The notes beneath the pieces are model-generated. The model worked only from the letters and a program-made list of their open reading frames with translations. It ran no database searches and had not been told where the DNA came from. Positions 9,624 to 61,891 of a stretch of DNA of 64,000 bases are shown piece after piece. The DNA is from an uncultured Campylobacter sp. (GTDB taxonomy: Bacteria > Campylobacterota > Campylobacteria > Campylobacterales > Campylobacteraceae). Numbering within the stretch: position 1 is the stretch's first letter; each line of letters starts with the position of its first letter. Made by a program: the position numbers and the translations under genes. The DNA is taken from positions 9,805 to 73,804 of the forward strand of contig NZ_CALKZP010000028.1 of NCBI RefSeq assembly GCF_938002845.1, given 5' to 3'.

Positions 9624-9947
9624 ATGGGATACGTTTATTTGGGGCTTGCTATAGTTTTGGAGCTAGCGGGGACCAACTGTATGAAGCTCTCGGACGGATT
9701 TAGTAAGCTGAATTATTCTCTAGCCACGCTAGCGGCATACGGCGCGTGCTTTTATTTTTTAGCGCTTGCGCTAAAAACGGTAAAGCTTAGCGTCGCTTAC
9801 GCTACGTGGGGTGGGCTCGGCATAGTATTAGCATCGCTGCTTTCGGTGTTTTACTTCCACGAAAAGCTCTCTGTGCCCGCGATATGCGGCATAGCGCTCA
9901 TCGTGATAGGCACGGCGATGTGTAATTTCTTCGGCGCAGGACACTAA
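9624..9947 (+). CDS. SMR-family small multidrug/cation efflux protein (EmrE/QacE-like)
   Basis: 107 aa with four predicted TM helices. The conserved membrane-embedded Glu sits in LELAGTNCMK, and an AYATWGGLG motif is present. AAGGAG ribosome-binding site upstream. Confidence 0.8.
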   Translation: MGYVYLGLAIVLELAGTNCMKLSDGFSKLNYSLATLAAYGACFYFLALALKTVKLSVAYATWGGLGIVLASLLSVFYFHEKLSVPAICGIALIVIGTAMCNFFGAGH

Positions 9948-13620: not shown

Positions 13621-13917
13621 TTTAAATTTAAAATTTATCGCCGCATTAGGCGAAATTTTACGTGAAATTTTAAAATTTCTAAATTTTAAAATTCGCTAGA
13701 CGAAGGAATTTTAAAATTTTATGGCTCGAGAGAATTTCAGAATTCTACGGCATGGTGAAATTTTAAAATTTCATAGCTTGCTGTGTGGGTTAAATTCTAA
13801 AAATTCGCGTTTGAATGAAATTCAAAAATCCCCTATATATGTGAAGCGCGAGCAAAATTCTAAAATCCTCGCCGAAGTAAAATTTTAAAATTCTTGCCCG
13901 AGCGAAATTTAAAAATT
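13621..13917. repeat. Array of 12 A/T-only palindromic boxes (consensus GAAATTTTAAAATTTC) separated by short GC-rich linkers
   Basis: Boxes start at about 13621, 13652, 13664, 13680, 13705, 13732, 13757, 13791, 13817, 13853, 13878 and 13904. Identical 16-mers occur at 13664-13679 and 13757-13772. The array lies between the mqo stop and the pyk start. Confidence 0.85.
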
Positions 13918-13922
13918 CCTCT

Positions 13923-15269
13923 TTATCGCATCATTTCCGCGTCAAATTTTGCATCATCAAAGCTCACTCCCAAATATTCGCAGGCACTTTTTGCGTCGCG
14001 AAGTGCGTTGCCTAGGCAGCTCGTAGCGCCGGGGCTTGGGGTCATATTAAAGATAATCCCCGGATTTTCGCCTATTCTAGCTTCGCCTAAAAGCAGCTTT
14101 TTTTGCGAGTGTGAGATTACTTGTGGGCGCACGCCGCCAAAGCCCTTGGCATAATAAATATCCTCCTCGCGGATGCTAGGTATGATCTTGCGCGCATTTT
14201 TGACGAAAAGCTTTTTACCTAAAATCGGTATCTCAAAGCCTATATTGCGGATTAAGAAGTCCCTTACCTCGCTATCGCCAAAATTTTGCCAAATGACCTT
14301 GGCTACGTCCATGTCAAAATTTAATGATTGAAAAAATTCCGGCACCGAACGACAGCCCTTGTAGCGCTCAAGCTTCGGCATCGTAAGCGCGGTAGGACCA
14401 AATCTCGTGCAGCCGTCTGCGAGCAAATCCGGATCGCCGTGAAGCGCGGCAAATGGAAGCTTTGGGTTTTGTACCATGTAAACCTTGCCGTTTAGAAGTT
14501 TTTGCTTGGTTAGATAGAAGCTGCCAGCGATGCAAATCGTGCTAAGATCCTGCCCAAGCCCCATTTTGTGCGCGAGCCATAGCGAGTGAGCGCCCGCATC
14601 TACGACTACGAAATCAGCACTTAGCGAGAGTCTATTTGCGGTGCGGATATAGAACTTATCGCCTACTTTAGTGATGTTTTGCACCTCGGTGTTTAGGTAC
14701 AGATCGCAGGTTTTACCCTCCACGTTTTTAGCGTTTTGCACGAAGGAATTCGCCATCGCGCCGTAATCGATCGTCGTGTAAACTCCCGATTGCACGCCCA
14801 TTGCTACGATATCCTCCACTCGCTCCTCGCCGCGTCCGTCAAAAACTAACTTGGGCTCGATTTTTTTGAGCTCTTCCTTGTCGAAAAGCTGCAGATACGG
14901 ATAAAGCTCTTTAAATTTTTCAAAGCGCTCTTTAATTAGCTCTACCTCGCTCTCGCCCACGCCAAGAGCCATTTTCTGCCCCTGAAATAAAAATTTATTC
15001 TCATATCCGTGCTTTTGGCAATATTTCACGATCATATCCGCCTTGCGCTTGACTTCGGTCGCTTTTTGCAGGTCGTAGTTGGTCTCGATGTCGCCGCAAT
15101 GAATCGTCTGGGAATTTGCACTGGCTTTAGAATTCAGCGTCGCAAGCCCTTCGTATTTTTCAAGTAGAGCTATATTTTTGATTCCGCTAAATTCCGCCAG
15201 TACATATGCTAGCGCGCTGCCCGTGATACCGCCGCCTATGATGATTACTTCGTAATGTTTTTCTTGCAT
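13923..15269 (-). CDS. mqo: Malate:quinone oxidoreductase (epsilonproteobacterial FAD-dependent type)
   Basis: N-terminal FAD fold YEVIIIGGGITGSALAY. Its length (~448 aa) and its position next to pyk match C. jejuni Cj0393c and H. pylori Mqo. Confidence 0.8.
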   Translation of the reverse strand: MQEKHYEVIIIGGGITGSALAYVLAEFSGIKNIALLEKYEGLATLNSKASANSQTIHCGDIETNYDLQKATEVKRKADMIVKYCQKHGYENKFLFQGQKMALGVGESEVELIKERFEKFKELYPYLQLFDKEELKKIEPKLVFDGRGEERVEDIVAMGVQSGVYTTIDYGAMANSFVQNAKNVEGKTCDLYLNTEVQNITKVGDKFYIRTANRLSLSADFVVVDAGAHSLWLAHKMGLGQDLSTICIAGSFYLTKQKLLNGKVYMVQNPKLPFAALHGDPDLLADGCTRFGPTALTMPKLERYKGCRSVPEFFQSLNFDMDVAKVIWQNFGDSEVRDFLIRNIGFEIPILGKKLFVKNARKIIPSIREEDIYYAKGFGGVRPQVISHSQKKLLLGEARIGENPGIIFNMTPSPGATSCLGNALRDAKSACEYLGVSFDDAKFDAEMMR

Positions 15270-20346: not shown

Positions 20347-22260
20347 ATGAATTGGAATTTAGGCGAGCTATTTGCAAACGAAGCGGAATTTAGTGCCGCG
20401 ATAGATAGTGCGGCCGCGCAGGCTAGGGATTTTGAGCTTAAATTTAAAGATAAGCTGCACGCCCTTAGCGCGGAGGAATTTTTAGGCGCGCTTGAGCTTT
20501 ACGAGAGCATCAGCGAGCAGATCGGCAAGATAATGAGCTTTGCGCATCTAAGATTCGCGCGAGATACGAGCCTTGGGGCGCAGCAGGCTAAGACGGAGCA
20601 GGCTTGCAACGACATTTCGCAGAGCCTGCTCTTTTTCGAGCTCGAGTTTAACGAGCTTGACGCCGCAAAACAGGACGAGTTTATCGCGCAAGGCGGTAGG
20701 TTTAAATATTATTTGAGCCTGCTTAAGCGGCGTAAGGCCCATCAGCTAAGCTTGCCGCAAGAAAGCGTGCTTTTAAAAACTTCGCCCGTAAGCGGCGAGG
20801 CGTTTTCGCGGCTTTTTGACGAAAGCATGGCGCGGATGAGCTTTGATTTTCGCGGGCAAAAGCTTGGAGAGGAGGAAATTTTAAGCCTGCTTCATAGCCC
20901 TGATCGCGAGGTGCGAAAGGATGCCGCAGCCTCGCTAAGTGCGGTGCTGCAGCAGAACTCCCACCTACTTGGCTATATCTACAATATGATCAAAACCGAT
21001 CTTAAAATTCGCTGCGAGCTGCGGGGTTACGATAAAGCCGAGTCGGTGATGCACGAAGAAAATCAAATAAACATCGCAAGCGTCGATACGCTGATCGCAG
21101 AGGCGGAGCGAAGCTTCGCTCTGGTCGGCAAATTTTACGCCAAAAAGCGCGAAATTTTAGGCTACAACGCGCTGTATGATTACGACAGATACGCGCCGCT
21201 CGGCGGCGATGAGAGCGAGTTTAGCTTCGAGCAGGCTAAGCAGATCGTGCTTGCGGCGTTTGAAAAATTTAGCCCGAAATTTAAGCAGATTGCGCTGATC
21301 GCGTTTGAGCAAAACTGGATCGACGCGATGCCCGCGCAAAATAAGCAAAGCGGCGCGTTTTCGCATTCGGGCTCGCGCGATACGCACCCATTCGTGCTTT
21401 TAAATTTCACGCGCAAGCGCCGCGACATATTTACCCTCGCGCACGAGCTGGGGCACGCGATACATCAGTATCTAAGCTACGGCGTGGGCTATTTTAACTC
21501 CTTCACGCCGCTAACGACGGCTGAGACCGCATCGGTTTTCTGCGAGATGCTGGTGTTTGATTATATGCGCGAAAATTTTTCAAATTTAAGCGGCTCTCAA
21601 AATTTAAAAAGCGCCGTCGCCTCGGACGACTCGCAAAATTTAAAGTGCGATGCTTCACAAGAGGCTCAGAGCGGTGAAATTCCAAACGAGCACGCCGTAA
21701 AAAATGCCGCTTCGCAAGGCTCTGCGGGTTCGTGCGAGCTTGCAGCACGCGATACGGATACGCCATCGCAGACCGCAAGCGATAAGACCGCGCTAAGAGC
21801 GATGCTTGCGGCAAAGATCGAAGATATCTTCGCTACGCTTTACCGCCAGATCGGATTTACGACCTTTGAACGGCGCGTGCATGCGAGCGCGGATGAGCTA
21901 AGCACGGGGCAAATAGATGAGCTTTGGATGGAGGAATCGCGCAAGATGTTTGCGGGCGAGCTGATCTTGCAGGATCATTACAAAAGCTGGTGGAGCTACA
22001 TCCCGCACTTCGTTCACTCGCCGTTTTACTGCTACTCCTACGCCTACGCGCAGCTTTTGGTGCTCGCGCTTTACGGGCTGTATAAGAGCGGCAGGCTCGA
22101 AAATTTCGTTCAAATTTACACCGAGTTTTTAAGCTCGGGCGGCAGCGACGCGCCGCAAAAGCTAGTGGCGAAATTCGGGTTTGACATCAATAAAAGCGAG
22201 TTTTGGCGCATCGGCATAGAGCAGGTCGCGGCGCTTGTAGATGAGTTTGTGAGGGGTTAG
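20347..22260 (+). CDS. pepF: Oligoendopeptidase F (M3B) with a ~70-aa low-complexity insert
   Basis: Zinc motif HELGHAIH and a downstream ETASVFCE. I prefer ATG 20347, which has an AAGGAAA ribosome-binding site, over the tracked TTG 20311. Insert at roughly 21574-21789. Confidence 0.85.
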   Translation: MNWNLGELFANEAEFSAAIDSAAAQARDFELKFKDKLHALSAEEFLGALELYESISEQIGKIMSFAHLRFARDTSLGAQQAKTEQACNDISQSLLFFELEFNELDAAKQDEFIAQGGRFKYYLSLLKRRKAHQLSLPQESVLLKTSPVSGEAFSRLFDESMARMSFDFRGQKLGEEEILSLLHSPDREVRKDAAASLSAVLQQNSHLLGYIYNMIKTDLKIRCELRGYDKAESVMHEENQINIASVDTLIAEAERSFALVGKFYAKKREILGYNALYDYDRYAPLGGDESEFSFEQAKQIVLAAFEKFSPKFKQIALIAFEQNWIDAMPAQNKQSGAFSHSGSRDTHPFVLLNFTRKRRDIFTLAHELGHAIHQYLSYGVGYFNSFTPLTTAETASVFCEMLVFDYMRENFSNLSGSQNLKSAVASDDSQNLKCDASQEAQSGEIPNEHAVKNAASQGSAGSCELAARDTDTPSQTASDKTALRAMLAAKIEDIFATLYRQIGFTTFERRVHASADELSTGQIDELWMEESRKMFAGELILQDHYKSWWSYIPHFVHSPFYCYSYAYAQLLVLALYGLYKSGRLENFVQIYTEFLSSGGSDAPQKLVAKFGFDINKSEFWRIGIEQVAALVDEFVRG

Positions 22261-22261
22261 G

Positions 22262-22669
22262 ATGATAGATAAAATTTTAAAAGACGATAAATTTATCGCT
22301 GCGAGCAGCGCGAATATAGGCGCGGTTTTGGATTACGTTTTGGCTCTTGGATGCGGATTTGGCATCGTTGTGAGGACGGATCAGATAAAATTTGACCCGC
22401 CGCTGCCGGAGGAAATTTTAAAAAGCTTCAAAATGCCCGCGATCTTTTTGCAGCTGGAGGAATACACGCTTTCTAGCGCGCATCTTAGCAAGGATGAGCT
22501 GGTTTTCGAGGCGGGATTTGGACCGCAGGATTTTGCAAGCACGCTTAGCGTGCCGTTTTACGCGGTTTTGCAGATCGTCGTGGACGGCAAGCCCATCGCG
22601 GTAAATTTTTCTCGTCCCGAGTCCGAGTGGCTTAAGCGCGAAAAATCGCGTAAAATTTTTTCAAAATGA
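22262..22669 (+). CDS. Conserved hypothetical protein (weak resemblance to the SspB adaptor fold)
   Basis: 135-aa ORF packed tightly between pepF and pcrA, the position of Cj1100. The segment LVFEAGFGPQDFASTLSVPFYAVLQIV is reminiscent of SspB. The functional call is weak. Confidence 0.5.
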   Translation: MIDKILKDDKFIAASSANIGAVLDYVLALGCGFGIVVRTDQIKFDPPLPEEILKSFKMPAIFLQLEEYTLSSAHLSKDELVFEAGFGPQDFASTLSVPFYAVLQIVVDGKPIAVNFSRPESEWLKREKSRKIFSK

Positions 22670-27116: not shown

Positions 27117-27241
27117 GAATTCCAAGGCGCGCGGTTAAAATTTAAAAGCTAAATTTAAAGATAAAATTTAAAATTTGCTCGCCCGCTTTTAAATTTAAGC
27201 AAAAACGGGCTAAGCTTAGGACTAAATTTAGAAGGAAAAAG

Positions 27242-37156: not shown

Positions 37157-38254
37157 TTACAGCGCCTGCGCGAGTATAAATTTTGCAAAATCCTCGCGGG
37201 AGTTCGGGCATTTGCACACTTCGTAGTATTCATAACCCAGCTCGCACGCCTGGGCCCTATAAAAAATATCCAGCTCAAAATCGGTCTCGGAGTTATCCAC
37301 GCAAAACGCGATCGGAAATATCAGCGCTTTTTTGCTCTGCAGATCTCGCAAAACGTCCGCGACATTGGGCTCTAGCCACTTCACGGGGCCAAGGCGCGAT
37401 TGATACGCCAAAATGATCTCTTTAAATTTAATCCCGCGCGCAGCCAGCAGATCTTTTAAAATTTCCACGTGTGCTTCTACCTGCGCCTCGTAAGGATCGC
37501 CCGCGGCGATCATTTTTACCGGCAGCGAATGGGCAGAAAATATGAGTGAAATTTGCGAAATTTCATCCGCGCTAAATTTTGCGACGCAGCTTGCGATTAA
37601 ATTTAGCAAAATTTCGTTGTAAGCGGCGTTGTCGTAGAAAATATCAACTATCTTATAATTTTTTATACCGAGCTGTTTAAGTGCCGCCTCGGCAGAGCAC
37701 AGGCTCGATTGCACCGTAGTTTTTGAGAAGTGCGGATACAAAGGCATCAAAATTATCTCATCAAAATCCGCATATTTTTTAAGCACGTCCTCCGCAAATG
37801 GCGGCGTGTAATTCATCGCATAATCGCAAATTAACTCGTCTATCGGTTTTTTATCCCGCGGCGCCTCGTTTTGCAGCGCCTTGCCCTGCGTCGGGGCGTC
37901 TTGCGGCGGCTTGCTCTGCAATGAAATGTCTTGCGGCGGCTCATTCGCGGCGCCCGCATCCGCTGCATTTTCAAATTTTAATCCCGCGCCTAATTTTGCT
38001 CGCGCGAGTAAATTTACCCGCTCGCAAAGCGCTTCGGTGATGGAGCATATCGGCGAGCGCCCGCCCAATTTTTCGTAGTTGCTGCGCGCCGATGCGGTTC
38101 TGCTTTTTACGATGAGCGCGGCTAAAACGCTGCGCCAAAAATCGCTCTTAACGCCCAAAATAAAGGGGTCGTTAAACATATTTTTTAAAAAAACTTCAAC
38201 CTCGCTCAGATTGTTCGGACCGCCCATGTTGAGCAAAATTAGGGCTTTTTTCAT
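37157..38254 (-). CDS. hemH: Ferrochelatase with a ~55-aa low-complexity insert
   Basis: ILLNMGGPNNLSEVEVFLKNMFNDP and a conserved C-terminal half (SAHSLP...). The insert at roughly 37835-38005 contains a 30-bp-spaced direct repeat, GTCTTGCGGCGGC, at 37898 and 37928. Confidence 0.85.
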   Translation of the reverse strand: MKKALILLNMGGPNNLSEVEVFLKNMFNDPFILGVKSDFWRSVLAALIVKSRTASARSNYEKLGGRSPICSITEALCERVNLLARAKLGAGLKFENAADAGAANEPPQDISLQSKPPQDAPTQGKALQNEAPRDKKPIDELICDYAMNYTPPFAEDVLKKYADFDEIILMPLYPHFSKTTVQSSLCSAEAALKQLGIKNYKIVDIFYDNAAYNEILLNLIASCVAKFSADEISQISLIFSAHSLPVKMIAAGDPYEAQVEAHVEILKDLLAARGIKFKEIILAYQSRLGPVKWLEPNVADVLRDLQSKKALIFPIAFCVDNSETDFELDIFYRAQACELGYEYYEVCKCPNSREDFAKFILAQAL

Positions 38255-51141: not shown

Positions 51142-53388
51142 CTAAAATAGCCCATTTATCAGCCCTTTAATCGCGTCTGACTGCTCCTTTTTCGCGTCGT
51201 TTTTGCTGCTGTTATCGTCCTTTTTCACGCCGAAAAGCTTGTCGATGCCCTTGCCGATCTGTTTGTCGAGCTTGCCCTTTAGATAGTCTGATTGGATATT
51301 GTATTTCGGCTCTTTGATCGTGCCGGTGATGTTTATTTCAAGATCGGTTTTTTCGATGTTTGCCTTAACCGGCACCGAAATCGCGCCCGTTTTGCTATCC
51401 AGCGTGCCGCCTGTAACGTTTAGCTTGCTTTTTTGCGCGCTCATATCGGCGTTGAAATTGATTAAATTTTGCTTGATCGTGCCGTTTACTTTGGCGTCGT
51501 TATAGACCTCGCCGCCTAGATCGCGGCCTAAAATTTTGCCGATTTTATCGATCAATCCACCGCTAGGAAGGCGGCCGTTATTGATGATCGAGTCAAATTT
51601 TCCGCTGTGCGAGCTGGTATTATACGTAAGATTCGCATTGCCCGTGCCGTCGTAGACGTGATCGATATTTAAAAGCGTCGTAAGCTCTTTGACGATGAAA
51701 TTTTGAATTTTAAAGCTTGCCTCATCGCCCGCGATCTGTCCGTTCAGCTCGCCGCCCGCGACCTTGGAATTTATGGTCGCAAACAGGCTCTTGCCGTCGT
51801 GCGAAAGCTCGCCGGTAGCGGCGATCTTGCCGTTTAGTCTGCGATTTAAGAAAAACTCCAGTCGCTGCAAGCTCGGGATCAGCAGCGCGTAGTTTGCCTT
51901 AAGCGCTTTGTTTTTAAGCTCGTAGGTGCCGTTTAGGCTCTGAAGCTGCGCCAGATCGGAGTTTACGCTAGCGCTAAAGGTCGCGACTGAGTTTTTGATA
52001 TTTGTCTGCGCCTGCGCGTCCGCTTTTAGATCGCTCGGGAAGTTCTTGCCGCTCACGCCGTCTAAAAATTTCTTAAAAATCACGCCGTTAGCGAGCGAAA
52101 TTTGCGCCGTGCCGTTAATGCCGTCCTTTAAGCTTAACTTCGCATCGCCGTTTATCGTGCCGTTTCCGATCGCGCTGCCGTAAAACAGAGCCGAAAGTAC
52201 GACCAGATTTAGATTGCTCGCTTTAAGCTTAAGATCGCTTAAATTTCCGTTCGCATTCAGGTTGCCGCCCATCGCGTTTAGATTTAAGCTTAGATTTTTA
52301 AGCTCATTTTGCGCTAAAGCCGCGCTAAGCTCGCCGTTTGCCTTGCCTTGCAGCTTCACCCCCAGGACGTTTTGCAGCGCGGCTAGATCGTTTGCGTTTA
52401 GCTTCGCGGACAGCTCGCCGTTTTTGTTTTTAAGATCGTATTTAGCCTTCGCATCCGCTTTAAGCGCGTCTTTAAACGCCGAAATTTGCGAGTTTAAAAG
52501 CTCAAGCGTAGAAAAATCGGTCTTTAAATTTCCGTTTGCTTTAACGTCGCCAGAAATTTTGCGCCCGATAAGGCTTTCGAGTTTCGCTAAATCGGGCAAA
52601 TTTAGATTAAAATCGGAATTTAAAGTTTTGTTTTTCAGATCAAATTCCGATTTTTCGGCGCTGATCTTGCCCAGCGTCGAATCGATCTTGCTTGCTGCTC
52701 GCAGGACGTCATTTTGCGCCGTGATGTCCGAGTTTAACGTGATCTGCACGCCCTTTGGGATGGAGATATTCATATCTTTAAACGCAGATTCGTTTAGGAT
52801 CAAATTTGAGCTTTTGATGCTTGCGTTGCCCTCTGCGCCGCTACCACCGGCTTTGATATCCGAGAGCACGTCGATATTTCCTTTGGCGTATATCGGTAGC
52901 GAAGCCACGGCAAGGGCTTTTTCGACGTTTAGAGCTTTAGCGTCGATTTGTAGATCAAGCGGACTAAGGTCTTTTAAATTTGCTAAAAATTTTACGTTGC
53001 TATCAAAAATCCGCCCGCTGCCGTTGATGCCGAATTTGCTAAGATCGCCTAAAATTTGCCCTTTAAGGCTTAGCTCTTCGTCCATTTTTATGCCGAGCTT
53101 GGCTAGATCGTGCGCGTTTGCGTCGTAGCTAAGATCGAAGGAGCGCGCAAAAAGCGAGTATTTGCCCTTTACGTTTACGCTCGCAGCATCATTTACGTTG
53201 GCGCTAATATCCAAATCGCCGAAATTTAGATCGAATTTATCGAGCTTCACGTCAAGGCCGCTTTTTTCTTTGATCAAATTTTCTATGTAAGGCTTGGTGA
53301 GATTGTTGCCAAAATCGCTGAAAAATAGGCAGCCGGCGCCTACGATAAGCAGGATTAAAATTCCTGCGATTATGCCGAAAATTTTCAT
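51142..53388 (-). CDS. AsmA-family/large periplasmic repeat protein (N-terminal membrane anchor)
   Basis: N-terminal TM helix, then about 700 aa of repetitive Asn/Lys/Leu/Gly-rich beta-type sequence. It lies upstream of and divergent from groES, as does a large periplasmic protein gene in C. jejuni. Confidence 0.65.
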   Translation of the reverse strand: MKIFGIIAGILILLIVGAGCLFFSDFGNNLTKPYIENLIKEKSGLDVKLDKFDLNFGDLDISANVNDAASVNVKGKYSLFARSFDLSYDANAHDLAKLGIKMDEELSLKGQILGDLSKFGINGSGRIFDSNVKFLANLKDLSPLDLQIDAKALNVEKALAVASLPIYAKGNIDVLSDIKAGGSGAEGNASIKSSNLILNESAFKDMNISIPKGVQITLNSDITAQNDVLRAASKIDSTLGKISAEKSEFDLKNKTLNSDFNLNLPDLAKLESLIGRKISGDVKANGNLKTDFSTLELLNSQISAFKDALKADAKAKYDLKNKNGELSAKLNANDLAALQNVLGVKLQGKANGELSAALAQNELKNLSLNLNAMGGNLNANGNLSDLKLKASNLNLVVLSALFYGSAIGNGTINGDAKLSLKDGINGTAQISLANGVIFKKFLDGVSGKNFPSDLKADAQAQTNIKNSVATFSASVNSDLAQLQSLNGTYELKNKALKANYALLIPSLQRLEFFLNRRLNGKIAATGELSHDGKSLFATINSKVAGGELNGQIAGDEASFKIQNFIVKELTTLLNIDHVYDGTGNANLTYNTSSHSGKFDSIINNGRLPSGGLIDKIGKILGRDLGGEVYNDAKVNGTIKQNLINFNADMSAQKSKLNVTGGTLDSKTGAISVPVKANIEKTDLEINITGTIKEPKYNIQSDYLKGKLDKQIGKGIDKLFGVKKDDNSSKNDAKKEQSDAIKGLINGLF

Positions 53389-55538: not shown

Positions 55539-56102
55539 CCATTACAACGGCGCTGTGAGATTTTGCAGCGCCGCGAAATGCTTTATGCGCGGCGATGCTT
55601 TTGCTGTGCGCCGTAAAATGCGATGTGCCGCGTTTTGGATATGTCTAAGGCGCGGCGATTTATTATGAATTAGCGATTAAGTGGTGTGATTTTTAGTCAC
55701 TGCATGATCTCGCAAATTTCGTATCTCGCCGCAAATTTGCGGTCTTGCTGCATTATCCTTTAAAATTAAAAATTTTATCTGAGCTTGCTTTTTACCTTAA
55801 ATTCTGACTTGCCGCTCAAAATCTAAGCGCAGAATTCTAAAACTTTAAAATTTTTCAGCTCTCCTTCTTAAACGCTTACAAGATAAAATTTTGCTGTGGC
55901 GTCATATTTTTAATGTGATAAAATTCTATTGCCAAACAGAATCCTAGCTGTGGAATTTTTACAGCTTAGCCTTTATCAATGTTTTTATTTGGCGATACGG
56001 CTTGGAATTAGAGCTGAAATTTCATAGCCTCACTCATTAAATTTAACGCGGCTTAATCTAAGCTTTGCTAAATTTCGCCTAAAATCCATGGAAAGGAAAA
56101 CG

Positions 56103-57167
56103 ATGAAAAATTTAGCTCGTATTTTTTTAATTGCGTTCATTTTGGCGAGTTTTTCTAGCGCTTTTGCCGCTCAGCAAAGCCATAAATCGCCCGCCGCGTT
56201 GCAAAACCATAAATATAAAATTTCATCTCAGAATTTACGAGCCAAAGATCATTCGAGCAAAAATATAGCGGCAAGATCCTCTGCCGAGCCGCATGCTAAA
56301 AAATCTGCAAATGCTAAAAGCCTTTCAAAATCCAAGCTCACAAAAAATACGCGTGCGTCTAGGAAATCCGCTAAAAATTTCACGCGAAAAAGTGCGAAAA
56401 ATTTTACTAAAAATCCCGGGCAAAATTTCGCATCGCATTCTGCGAGAAATAAAGCATCTAGGCGCCCGACTAATCAATCAAGCAGCCAGAATGAAGCTAG
56501 CAAGAGTCTAGTTGCGACGCTGATGCGTTTGCCAAAGACCCGCATCTATGAGGACGAGGCGCCAAGCGCTCGCGATACGGAGCAAACTTACAGAGGCGCA
56601 GATATGCGGAGAAGCGTAAGCGCGCAAACTCACGGAGGCGCGGATGAGCAGACCGGCAAAACCGTAGACGCACAAGCTCGAAAATTAACGACGACTCGAA
56701 TTGCACAGCCGCAAGCTCGCTACGGCTATAGTGCAACTCGTTCTGGCGCTATGGGGCATACAGCTGCATCTCATTCGAGCGCCACGAAGTATACGGCTCG
56801 TAAAAATGCCCGCGCGCCCTATCTTCCCACATCTGCTCGCTCTAGCCGTGCGATAGGGCGCTCTGGCGGTAGCGCGCTTGGTAGGATGCCGTCGCCAAAG
56901 CGGGGTAATGCGTTAGGACAAGGTGCTGCGATGCGTTATGATGAGCGTTGGGCGAAGCCCGCTCCACAGCCTTATGAGCCTGCGCCTGAGACTGAGAAAA
57001 AGCACGGGCTAATATTTTCGTCGCAGTGGGGCCCCGCCGCGACGAAAAGCAAGTGGCAGCAGCACGAAGCCCCGACGGATGATGCTTCGTCGCGCAATGA
57101 GTCGGTGATGGATATGCTGCAGGACAAGATGAGCAGGGTCAAGGTGAATATGGAGCTAGTGCGCTAG
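56103..57167 (+). CDS. Secreted, very basic, low-complexity (Ser/Ala/Arg/Lys-rich) protein
   Basis: ATG 56103 is preceded by AAGGAA. Signal peptide MKNLARIFLIAFILASFSSAFA/AQ. Tandem RKSAKNFT repeats. Only the last ~60 aa look globular. Confidence 0.6.
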   Translation: MKNLARIFLIAFILASFSSAFAAQQSHKSPAALQNHKYKISSQNLRAKDHSSKNIAARSSAEPHAKKSANAKSLSKSKLTKNTRASRKSAKNFTRKSAKNFTKNPGQNFASHSARNKASRRPTNQSSSQNEASKSLVATLMRLPKTRIYEDEAPSARDTEQTYRGADMRRSVSAQTHGGADEQTGKTVDAQARKLTTTRIAQPQARYGYSATRSGAMGHTAASHSSATKYTARKNARAPYLPTSARSSRAIGRSGGSALGRMPSPKRGNALGQGAAMRYDERWAKPAPQPYEPAPETEKKHGLIFSSQWGPAATKSKWQQHEAPTDDASSRNESVMDMLQDKMSRVKVNMELVR

Positions 57168-58989: not shown

Positions 58990-59797
58990 GTGTCTTGGCG
59001 TAAAATTTTAAAATTTAATTCCGAGGCAGCGCTTTTAAATTTGAGTCTTTGGGAATGCGGCTTGGAATTCCGGATTTAAATTTTAACTCTGGAATTTTGT
59101 TTTTAAATTTTGGGTTTGAAATTTTAACTTTGCAATTCGCCGTGAAATTTTATTTTAAAATTTGAGCCTCGCGATTCGGTGCTAAATTTGCGGCGTGAAA
59201 TTTCGATACGTAAAATTTTAAACCATAGAGCTCAGCGGCGTAAAATTTCAAGGCACGGCGCGGGAGTCGGGCCGCATTAAATTTAGCGTGACGGACGCAC
59301 CGTTTGCGAAACAGCGAGCGAGCGTTAAATTTAAATGCCGCGGCATTTGGCTCATTGTTTAAGGCATTTGAAAAATTTCAGATCGCGACGCTCGGTTTAA
59401 GTTTAGAAAGGTTCGCTCGCCGCAGCTCGGGCGCAAAATTTAATGCCCGAGCCGGGGGCGCTAAATTTTAATAGGCGGGCTTAAAATTTTAAAAAATTCT
59501 AAGCCCTAGCGAAATTTCAAGCTCTATGAAATTTCAAAATTTTAAATCCGCCGCGGCAGCCTTTGGGCGCAGCCTTAAATCGCCGCAGTATATGCGGCAT
59601 AAGAGCGTAGCGGCTTAAAATTGCGTGGCTTTTTGAAGCGCGAAATTTTCAAAGCTGCGATAGTTCTAAGGTCTCGCGACGAGCGTTCAAAGCCGCATCG
59701 CTTTTCAAAAGCGCGTACCGGGGCTGTGGATTAAAATTTACGATTTTATAGAGCTTAAAATTTAGACGCGCAAAAGCGCGCGAAACGAGGGGAAGCG
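58990..59797. repeat. ~0.8-kb intergenic AAATTT-box / GC-linker array upstream of dnaB
   Basis: Dozens of boxes, for example gtaaaattttaaaatttaattc, ttttaaatttgag, ggatttaaattttaac, tttttaaattttggg, tgaaattttaac, gtgaaattttattttaaaatttgag, gctaaatttgcgg and gtaaaattttaaacc. No credible ORF. Confidence 0.8.
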
Positions 59798-61891
59798 ATG
59801 GCAACGAAGCAGAATGTGCCTGCAAATTTATACGATCTGGATATGGAGCGCGCGATTTTAAGCTCGCTTTTGCAAAACGAGGACGCATACGGCGAGCTGA
59901 GCGAGATAATCTCGGTCGGCGATTTTTTCTACAAGCCGCACGCCGACATCTACGAGGCGATCGTCAAATGCTCCTCGCACAACGAGCCGATCGCGCCGAG
60001 CTTCGTTAAAAAATGGCTAGCCGAGCGCTACGACGATGGCGCATTTACCGAGGTCGTAGCCACCAGCGGCGTGGTCGATGCCCCAAAATACGCGCTCGAG
60101 CTGCGCGAAAAATCGATCAAGCGCTCACTAATCAAGGTCGCGCACGAGATCCCTTCGATGGTAAACGAAGCCGTGCGCAGCAAAGATACCGCCGATAAGA
60201 TCAGCTCCAAAATTTACGAGCTCATCGACGAGGAGCGTCACGGCGGCATCAAAAAATCGCACGAGATCATCGCCGACGTGGTAGAGGAGCTGAAGCGCCA
60301 AAAGGCGCTCGCAGGCTCGGAGCTCGTGGGGCTGGATACCGGCTTTTGCTTCCTAAACGACTGCACGAAGGGGTTGAAACCGGGTGAGCTCATCATCATC
60401 GCCGCCCGCCCAGGTATGGGCAAGACCGCCTTTGCGCTAAATTTGATGATGAAAACGCTGCAAAGCGGCAAAGGCGTCGTATTTTTCTCGCTCGAGATGC
60501 CCTCCGTGCAGCTGATGTATCGCATACTAAGCGCGCTTAGCTCGATCCCGCTAAGCGACATAATGAGCGCCAAGCTTAGCGACGACGACTGGACGCGCTT
60601 CAACGACGCTTGCGACGCGGTGCTGAATATGCCGCTTTTCGTCTATGACAGCGGCTATGTAAACATCCACCAAGTCCGCACCCAGCTGCGCAAACTCAAA
60701 TCCGCAGACGCCAACATCGAGCTTTGCGTGATCGATTATATCGGACTTATGACGAGCACGAGCAACTACTCCGAGCGCCACCTGCAAATCGCCGAAATTT
60801 CGCGCGGGCTCAAGCTTTTGGCGCGCGAGCTAAACATCCCGATCATCGCGCTGTCGCAGCTAAACCGCTCGCTCGAGGCGCGCTCGAACAAACGCCCGAT
60901 GCTAAGCGATCTACGCGAAAGCGGCGCGATCGAGCAGGACGCCGACATCATACTTTTCGTCTATCGCGACGAGGTTTATAAAGAGCAGATGGAGCGCGAG
61001 CGCATTTCGCGGCTGGAGGCCGAGGGCAAGGACGCGGGCGAGCCCGTGTTTAGGCGTAATGACTATCAGGAAAAGGCCGAAATCATCGTCGGCAAAAACC
61101 GCTCGGGCGAGGCGGGCAGGACGATCGAGGTTGGCTTTCAGGGCAGATTTACCCGCTTTGTCGATACGAGCTTCGGCGGCGAGCCCAGCGAGAGCGCGAT
61201 CTTTAACGAAAATGACAATCTCGACTACGTCTCGCAGCTGCAAGATCAGGGCTTTGAGGAGCCAGTTGGGCAGCATCCCGATACAGTGCAGAATTTGCAA
61301 CAGAATTTAGCGCAAAGCTTTAACGGCGCGGAGAATTTTAACGAAGCGCAAAATAGCGGCGTAAATTTAAATACAAGCTCCGCTAGCGCTCGAAACCCCG
61401 GAGTAAATATCGATTTTGACGAGATGCCTAGCTTTGGCCAAAGCGGTGAGCAGGACAGCGAGGAGATAGACGGCGAGTCTAAGCTTAGCGCAGAGCAGGG
61501 CTTGGCAGAGGTACAGCGCGCGGCACAGAATGCACTGCAAAAACAAGAATTTGAGGAGCAAAATTTAGATGATACGAGAGCGGGCGGTATCGCACCTGAA
61601 ATAGATGCGCATAAAAATTTAGCGGGCACTCCACGAGGCGTAAAAGACACATTGCGGGGCACGAAAGGTGCGCGGCAAGGTGCAGAGGGCGCATCGCAAG
61701 GCGCAGAGAACACGCAGCAAGAGAATGCTGCGTATTTTGAAAACGGCGATGGCGATGAGCCGCCTTTTGAAGCGCAAGAGGACGAGGCGAAATTTAAACC
61801 CGCGCCGCCTTTAAATATCGAAGAGATGGGCATTCCAAAGATCAATGAGGCAAACAGGCTCGATGACGACGACGCGCCGCTGGATCTGTGA
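59798..61891 (+). CDS. dnaB: Replicative DNA helicase DnaB with a ~230-aa acidic low-complexity C-terminal extension
   Basis: DnaB N-domain (DMERAILSSLL), Walker A ARPGMGKTAF, LSQLNRSLE and GKNRSGE motifs. The core ends at about aa 462 (nt ~61184). The remainder is Gln/Asn/Glu/Ala-rich. Confidence 0.9.
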   Translation: MATKQNVPANLYDLDMERAILSSLLQNEDAYGELSEIISVGDFFYKPHADIYEAIVKCSSHNEPIAPSFVKKWLAERYDDGAFTEVVATSGVVDAPKYALELREKSIKRSLIKVAHEIPSMVNEAVRSKDTADKISSKIYELIDEERHGGIKKSHEIIADVVEELKRQKALAGSELVGLDTGFCFLNDCTKGLKPGELIIIAARPGMGKTAFALNLMMKTLQSGKGVVFFSLEMPSVQLMYRILSALSSIPLSDIMSAKLSDDDWTRFNDACDAVLNMPLFVYDSGYVNIHQVRTQLRKLKSADANIELCVIDYIGLMTSTSNYSERHLQIAEISRGLKLLARELNIPIIALSQLNRSLEARSNKRPMLSDLRESGAIEQDADIILFVYRDEVYKEQMERERISRLEAEGKDAGEPVFRRNDYQEKAEIIVGKNRSGEAGRTIEVGFQGRFTRFVDTSFGGEPSESAIFNENDNLDYVSQLQDQGFEEPVGQHPDTVQNLQQNLAQSFNGAENFNEAQNSGVNLNTSSASARNPGVNIDFDEMPSFGQSGEQDSEEIDGESKLSAEQGLAEVQRAAQNALQKQEFEEQNLDDTRAGGIAPEIDAHKNLAGTPRGVKDTLRGTKGARQGAEGASQGAENTQQENAAYFENGDGDEPPFEAQEDEAKFKPAPPLNIEEMGIPKINEANRLDDDDAPLDL

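Follow-up and report, generated by a model that had tools for sequence, protein, structure and literature searches.

The window analysed here is a 64-kb stretch of DNA (64,000 nt) from an uncultured Campylobacter sp., positions 9,805 to 73,804 of contig NZ_CALKZP010000028.1. It contains a gene for an M3B oligoendopeptidase (PepF-like, 637 aa; 20347..22260, plus strand) that holds an additional in-frame segment of approximately 67 aa, from N410 to about T476 (21574..21774, plus strand; ends uncertain by a few codons). We conclude that this insert is probably a clade-specific disordered loop of the enzyme that carries a genome-wide motif, the hexamer AAATTT, and not a copy of a mobile element. 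The initial annotation of the stretch had proposed that an intergenic-type AAATTT-box repeat had colonized the gene in frame, following the precedent of the Rickettsia palindromic elements (RPEs). By itself the insert is of an ordinary kind, a lineage-specific disordered loop. The behavior of the AAATTT boxes within it is the more informative part, since four hexamers are fixed across dozens of genomes even though the peptide around them drifts almost neutrally, which makes the loop a natural experiment.

A clade-specific, predicted disordered insert in a PepF-like peptidase

The open reading frame (ORF) 20347..22260 matches the Pfam domains Peptidase_M3 (8.9e-48) and Peptidase_M3_N, as well as the NCBIfam models TIGR02290 (6.4e-153) and TIGR00181/pepF (1.8e-89), and the Pfam and NCBIfam matches alike are split at the insert. 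Since the two NCBIfam scores lie under the curated cut-offs (510.8 vs 561.7 bits for TIGR02290 and 301.2 vs 490.55 bits for TIGR00181), we classified the protein as an M3-family oligoendopeptidase and not strictly as PepF. The HEXXH motif is formed by H366-H370 (21442-21456), and the third zinc ligand is E393 (21523-21525, plus strand); residues H366, E367, H370, and E393 are invariant in 90 aligned sequences. The AlphaFold2 model of the peptidase, based on this 90-sequence alignment, has a mean predicted local distance difference test score (pLDDT) of 90.5, and Foldseek matched it to the PepF-type structures 3ce2 (template modeling scores 0.77/0.82) and 2qr4. The protein therefore shows the features by which PepF membership is recognized, namely the HEXXH motif with a downstream glutamate, the Peptidase_M3 and M3_N domains, and the PepF fold.

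In HMMER comparisons with 2qr4 and 3ce2, the alignment ends at query residues 409-410 and starts again at 485-487, so that a stretch of 75-76 query residues faces 9-10 residues of the structures. The spacing between E400 and E492 amounts to 23-26 residues in all 86 diverse cluster representatives, compared with 91 residues in this protein and 79-91 in sequences of the C. gracilis group, and from this excess we derived the insert length of about 67 aa and its extent from N410 to approximately T476. An in-frame segment of some 70 aa after the third zinc ligand had already been proposed in the initial annotation, and both the alignment breaks and the spacing bear it out as a lineage-specific feature. 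The sequence strings quoted there are present in the window, and the coordinates given there, 21574-21789, run from the first base of N410 to the last base of T481. In the AlphaFold2 model, residues 422-471 (21610..21759, plus strand) are predicted to be disordered, with pLDDT <50 and no secondary structure, and are bordered by helices 394-409 and 411-422 before and 477-497 after. As had been suggested, the insert is modeled as a low-confidence loop between two helices, presumably at the surface.

A genome scan with the PepF sequence returned 38 loci, all from metagenome-assembled genomes (MAGs) of uncultured Campylobacter or C. gracilis and with PepF 91-96% identical; 37 of them span the insert site. 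The insert is present in every one of these 37 C. gracilis-complex genomes, where the anchors are separated by 71-112 aa. The expected presence/absence polymorphism among strains was not observed, as no empty site occurs in these 37 genomes and length alone varies. The closest insert-less PepF relatives, from Sulfurospirillum, a Helicobacter sp., and other Campylobacterales, are 568-582 aa long and 50-52% identical, and one of them is located on a contig of 32% G+C. With Campylobacter sequences from the C. gracilis complex alone and outgroups at this distance, the branch of insert origin is bounded only loosely.

Two further observations concern the distribution of the gene. The nearest PepF relatives outside the clade included no named Campylobacter species, and the gene may be missing or strongly diverged in other campylobacters. 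PepF at 91-96% identity occurs in at least 37 separate GTDB species representatives, almost all of which are human-associated 'uncultured Campylobacter sp.' MAGs. The C. gracilis complex appears to comprise many species-level bins.

AAATTT boxes in the insert and across the window

The insert contains four AAATTT boxes (given here without strand), all of which fall in its first 90 nt. Box 1 (21573..21578; codons E409-N410-F411) marks the left insert junction and is identical in 32/32 aligned genomes. It forms a doublet, at a spacing of 9, with box 2 (21582..21587; S412-N413-L414), which is kept in 30/32 genomes. Boxes 3 (21600..21605; Q418-N419-L420) and 4 (21636..21641; Q430-N431-L432) are located in the first and second of two 36-nt units, respectively. 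Box 4 is kept in 31/32 genomes, whereas the hexamer aligned to box 3 in the 32 genomes is AAATTT in 20, GAATTT in two, and GTATTT in one, the unit being absent from the remaining nine. The sequence also holds a degenerate box, AAATTC, at 21677..21682 (E444-I445-P446), which may be the leftover of a third unit; the corresponding string, ggtgaaattcc, had been quoted in the initial annotation among those of box texture.

At least four AAATTT per 70 nt were found at two places among 46,720 all-coding windows (0.056%). By third-order Markov log-odds (noncoding vs coding), positions 21571-21660 top all 90-nt coding windows and exceed 90% of noncoding windows. In contrast, the 3' 126 nt of the insert are ordinary, with 23% of coding windows scoring equally high. 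The window has 12 copies of the module AAATTT-N1-4-AAATTT-N9-14-AAATTT, which combines a doublet, a GC-rich linker of ~11 nt, and a further box; most copies belong to intergenic arrays and one to the insert. Thus, the box-plus-GC-linker texture that the initial annotation ascribed to the insert as a whole is a property of its 5' third, as judged by Markov score, box density, and module, and does not extend to the 3' 126 nt.

The two tandem units, GSQNLKSAVASD and DSQNLKCDASQE (21591..21662, plus strand; 36 nt or 12 aa each), vary in number among genomes and were detected as a direct repeat of 23 nt with 83% identity and a spacing of 36. Segment lengths between fixed anchors in the 37 genomes are 71, 86, 90, 96, 101, 102, and 112 aa, corresponding to ~35 to 88 extra residues, and all indels are multiples of three. 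In-frame deletions in the insert range from 18 to 93 nt. The commonest variant (625 aa) lacks exactly 36 nt or 12 aa (21590-21625), that is, one tandem unit, and one genome (L030) has 30 additional nt that bear another AAATTT.

Nonsynonymous codon differences outnumber synonymous ones in the insert, with a ratio of 1.89 overall and 2.79 where the boxes lie, whereas the gene on either side gives ratios of 0.35 and 0.41. The insert peptide evolves close to neutrally. Base identity within 21571-21660 is 99.0% for box bases and 81.4% for non-box bases, and the boxes are thus conserved inside a peptide that is itself nearly free to change. Peptide drift around fixed hexamers is direct evidence for DNA-level maintenance of AAATTT within a gene.

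This conservation has a counterpart at the scale of the genome. AAATTT is the commonest hexamer in the window (462 vs 85.9 expected), with a density of ~7/kb overall, 15.6/kb outside gene-ORFs, and 4.7/kb inside, where the gene set comprises selected ORFs of >=120 aa and 'noncoding' therefore takes in some short genes. Within coding sequences we counted 231 copies, compared with 67.5 after within-gene synonymous codon shuffling (3.4-fold, z ~22-28), which is the largest excess of any hexamer; these copies are divided among the three frames as 65/83/83. Of the related hexamers in coding sequences, GAATTT and AAATTC reach 1.4-1.5-fold, GAATTC 1.2-fold, and AATATT 0.67-fold, and AAGTTT and GAACTT both fall below expectation. 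The consensus extends to T-W-AAATTT-W-A, and boxes often form doublets at a spacing of 7-8, with 11 of 36 box doublets located within genes. Conservation was assessed over one orthologous region of 7.9 kb in 32 genomes, in which the retention of AAATTT is 0.945 compared with 0.74 for all hexamers, and AAA, TTT, AAT, and ATT codons show 99.1% conservation of their third base in boxes vs 90.9% outside (Mann-Whitney p = 6e-5). AAATTT is therefore enriched genome-wide and conserved at synonymous sites. The intergenic arrays are not a single sequence family but clusters of one hexamer that is also 3.4-fold enriched in genes, in all frames. Full-text literature searches and the C. gracilis genome paper (PMC4574385) yielded no description of such a motif.

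Example arrays in the window are located at 520-652, 1079-1100, 13624-13949, 27135-27196, and 59001-59140. A three-box intergenic module at 518-616 underwent a local tandem duplication of 60 nt (518-556 and 578-616, 92% identical), and a small ORF starting at ~702 lies downstream. A promoter role of the boxes was considered and rejected, since box density is alike in convergent, divergent, and tandem intergenic regions, and the boxes are hence not promoter parts.

Boxes are also found in conserved proteins. The conserved parts of PepF contain nine more AAATTT boxes, some of which encode highly conserved residues (F308, N353, and F587). Outside the insert, the PepF residues encoded by boxes are conserved to the same degree as the remaining ones (0.36 vs 0.35, n = 24), and box density is highest in the unconstrained insert. 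The ferrochelatase HemH (37157-38254, minus strand), which matches Pfam in two stretches, has ~45 extra residues between them (roughly aa 76-121, A/G/N-rich), with noncoding-like DNA at 37925-38014. Its conserved domain holds five AAATTT boxes at 37525-37614, including a three-box module at 37549-37579. Since HemH residues 122-360 align to Pfam profile positions 73-309 with no space for an insertion, insertion cannot explain the module there. Together with the in-gene doublets, this core module makes an intergenic origin unnecessary to explain the texture, and box modules possibly arise in place.

The recurrence of the pattern that the initial annotation reported for other ORFs held to the extent that HemH, the DnaB tail, and the ORFs starting at 56088 and 51142 contain similar tracts. 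DnaB (59798-61891, plus strand) has a ~240-aa tail beyond DnaB_C, which ends at aa 455, with QNL/ENF/QNS low-complexity tracts (61283-61372). The ORF at 56088-57167 (plus strand), which has no Pfam match, encodes tandem RKSAKNFT peptide repeats (56361-56450), each over an AAATTT box, and the ORF at 51142..53388 holds a tract similar to the box tract of PepF. In a 135-aa ORF downstream of pepF, a weak sub-threshold match to the Rfam Twister-P5 ribozyme at 22511-22600 (minus strand; 25.6 bits vs a gathering threshold of 37.6, E = 0.017) is probably due to chance.

Origin of the insert

Searches for further copies of the insert covered the 64 kb of the window, which is ~3% of the 2.3-Mb genome. 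With blastn-short no copy of the insert was found in the window, the longest exact match elsewhere being 17 nt, and tblastn of the insert peptide against the window ORFs with filters off gave no similarity (best E = 0.22). The best match of a single-sequence nhmmer search of the window scored 10.4 bits, a value equaled or exceeded by 18% of 60 coding controls, although the matches of the insert lie in noncoding DNA more often than those of the controls (coding fraction 0.49 vs 0.80). A profile of the 37 inserts reached 14.3 bits in the window, compared with a column-shuffled maximum of 10.6, and its top matches are the intergenic box arrays; as the column shuffle destroys local composition, this result shows shared texture and not homology. 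According to the initial annotation, the repeat hypothesis would have to be given up if a repeat model scored the insert no better than shuffled coding sequence. At the level of homology this is nearly what nhmmer showed with its coding controls, whereas at the level of texture the Markov scores do set the insert apart.

Structural features of a mobile element were likewise not found. No palindrome or hairpin above chance was detected by RNA folding of 21560-21800 (z = -0.15) or DNA folding of 21565-21665 (z = -0.37) against shuffles, and the inverted repeats in the insert are only 11-16 nt long and imperfect. The insert contains no Rfam family or RNA structure and no promoter-like site, and weak terminator-like matches on its minus strand occur at the shuffle rate. 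A dispersed repeat family was also rejected, because the repeats detected across the whole window are families of 63-77% identity on A/T boxes, plus the one local duplication of 60 nt.

The explanation that we favor, with moderate confidence, is the clade-specific disordered loop carrying the genome-wide motif. The loop would owe its intergenic look to three to five copies of AAATTT, a hexamer that is kept at the DNA level throughout the genome, in genes and intergenic regions, by selection or by a mutational or recombinational drive. If the loop tolerates almost any peptide, boxes would for that reason sit there at intergenic density; all of them are read in one frame as (E/S/Q)-N-(F/L). Boxes and short repeats at multiples of three (9, 18, and 36) would then supply likely microhomology for slippage or unequal recombination, by which the loop would lengthen or shorten in frame (the 36-nt unit once or twice; deletions of 18-93 nt) with the catalytic core intact. 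The positions of the indels make this slippage or microhomology step likely. We infer that the accumulation of boxes is caused by a genome-wide pressure and that the loop lacks a function in its own right.

Several points weigh against this explanation. In 86 other lineages the loop always measures 23-26 aa, with no intermediates seen outside the clade, and a single abrupt insertion fits this pattern at least equally well. The peptide RENFSNL and the doublet beneath it are invariant in nearly all genomes, which could mean a protein-level role, as the AlphaFold2 helix extends over 411-422. That boxes go where the protein tolerates them is not shown in general by the equal conservation of box-encoded and other residues (0.36 vs 0.35) in the rest of PepF. 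The profile score above shuffles implies some similarity beyond bare hexamers, with the reservation that the shuffle destroys dinucleotide structure, and the absence of other insert copies applies to 64 kb, or ~3% of the genome.

The first of these points leads to the rival explanation that survives best, although we consider it rather unlikely. An intergenic AAATTT-box fragment, not a mobile element, could have entered the loop codons once by illegitimate recombination or repair, being open in frame, and could later have diversified and been partly duplicated. No other coding window in the 64 kb looks as noncoding as the first 90 nt of the insert, which bear the doublet, GC linker, and box module typical of intergenic arrays; the nhmmer matches of the insert are more noncoding than those of the controls; and the otherwise invariant loop length suggests an abrupt event. 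However, no donor or similar fragment was found in the window, the 3' 126 nt are coding-like in composition, and identical modules occur in the conserved core of HemH, where capture is impossible. Moreover, typical intergenic doublets (AAATTTTAAAATTT, spacing 8) hold TAA in one of three frames, whereas the spacings of 9 and 18 in the insert look as if they had been shaped in frame.

It is less probable still, and in our judgment doubtful, that the insert is an adaptive feature of PepF, for instance a flexible lid, a tether, or a segment for interactions, with boxes conserved because the N-F and N-L residues matter. The insert is indeed kept in 37/37 genomes with its reading frame always intact, and RENFSNL is nearly invariant and modeled as a helix extension (411-422). 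On the other hand, the frame is needed anyway to translate the essential C-terminal 160 residues, substitution is near-neutral (nonsynonymous to synonymous ratio 1.9-2.8), length varies from ~35 to 88 extra residues, pLDDT is <50, and box conservation matches the genome-wide synonymous-site pattern. Finally, although a copy of a dispersed, mobile intergenic-type repeat colonizing ORFs in frame would account for an insertion that keeps the frame in a loop predicted to be disordered and presumably at the surface, for the box texture, and for the low-complexity N-L/N-F tracts in HemH, the DnaB tail, and other ORFs, we regard it as very improbable, given that the window holds no homologous DNA or peptide copies, that palindromic structure and presence/absence polymorphism in 37 genomes are both lacking, that the 'repeat' amounts to a 6-mer whose enrichment extends to every frame of conserved genes, and that the intergenic arrays form no single family beyond chance-level similarity of about 64-77%, save for the one local 60-nt duplication.

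Comparison with known systems

The peptidase resembles M3B oligoendopeptidase F (2qr4 and 3ce2; TIGR02290/TIGR00181) in domain architecture, in the zinc site of HEXXH plus glutamate, and in fold. It differs in the connection after the third-ligand helix, which is 66-67 residues longer than in any of the 86 representatives.

RPEs are palindromic repeats of 100-150 bp with many recognizably homologous copies and with presence/absence differences between relatives, and they were reportedly described by Ogata et al. in 2000 as inserted in frame in Rickettsia ORFs. The insert shares with them the additional in-frame segment in a housekeeping enzyme, where it occupies a loop flanked by conserved helices and is compatible with function. 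Of four defining features of RPEs, this in-frame insertion at a tolerant site is the one that was found, and the other three (palindrome, dispersed copies, and presence/absence differences) were not: the folding z-scores are -0.15 and -0.37, the 64 kb contain no homologous copy, the 37 genomes contain no empty site, and the hexamer is the sole shared unit. The idea of an RPE equivalent in Campylobacter is tempting, and we correct it here as unsupported; the proposal that the insert is a copy of an ORF-colonizing repeat is likewise not supported.

In Plasmodium proteins, Asn-rich, low-complexity disordered inserts arise in conserved enzymes from composition bias and replication slippage. Like these, the PepF insert is non-globular, fast-evolving, and length-polymorphic, with internal tandem units and a composition that follows a nucleotide bias of the whole genome. 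Here a single hexamer is favored rather than A+T overall, and the hexamer is conserved while the surrounding peptide drifts.

The nearest functional analogy, as far as one can be drawn, would be uptake sequences within genes. Uptake signal sequences (USS) and DNA uptake sequences (DUS) in coding regions alter peptide frequencies, and USS favor poorly conserved positions (Findlay & Redfield 2009, PMC2817400). Similarly, AAATTT is over-represented genome-wide, occurs in genes in several frames, is kept at degenerate positions, and shapes the encoded peptides, giving (Q/E/K)-N-(F/L), K-F, and E-I-L. Two properties expected of an uptake-like sequence were thus found, over-representation relative to composition and codon usage and maintenance at synonymous positions. 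In contrast to USS and DUS, AAATTT is just 6 bp long, palindromic, and far denser (~7/kb), and box-encoded PepF residues are no less conserved than others. We know of no uptake bias in C. gracilis.

We suggest tentatively that AAATTT, often arranged as modules of doublet, GC linker, and box, serves the C. gracilis complex as a functional DNA signal across the genome and is not a compositional accident. Candidate roles would be self-recognition in DNA uptake via a CtsM-type methylase narrowed to AAATTT, or a binding or bending site for a nucleoid protein. If AAATTT is such a signal, its build-up would introduce (Q/E/K)-N-(F/L) tracts into tolerant protein loops and tails (the PepF insert, the HemH insert, and the DnaB tail), the boxes would supply microhomology for loop length polymorphism, and the PepF insert would be a coding-region carrier of a DNA signal. 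In any case, the analysis flags a very dense genome-wide motif, at ~7/kb and 3.4-fold over the synonymous expectation, in an oral/gut Campylobacter lineage.

The first candidate role has a precedent in the same genus, as DNA uptake in C. jejuni depends on RAATTY methylation by CtsM (as cited in PMC10046745). AAATTT is one of the four RAATTY sequences. RAATTY as a whole was rejected as the enriched motif, since AAATTT alone is strongly enriched here (3.4-fold, compared with 1.4-1.5-fold for GAATTT and AAATTC and 1.2-fold for GAATTC), and a simple identity with the C. jejuni motif is therefore unsupported. Should the motif nevertheless prove to be tied to methylation-dependent uptake, as RAATTY is in C. 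jejuni, transformation biology would be linked to proteome evolution in Campylobacter.

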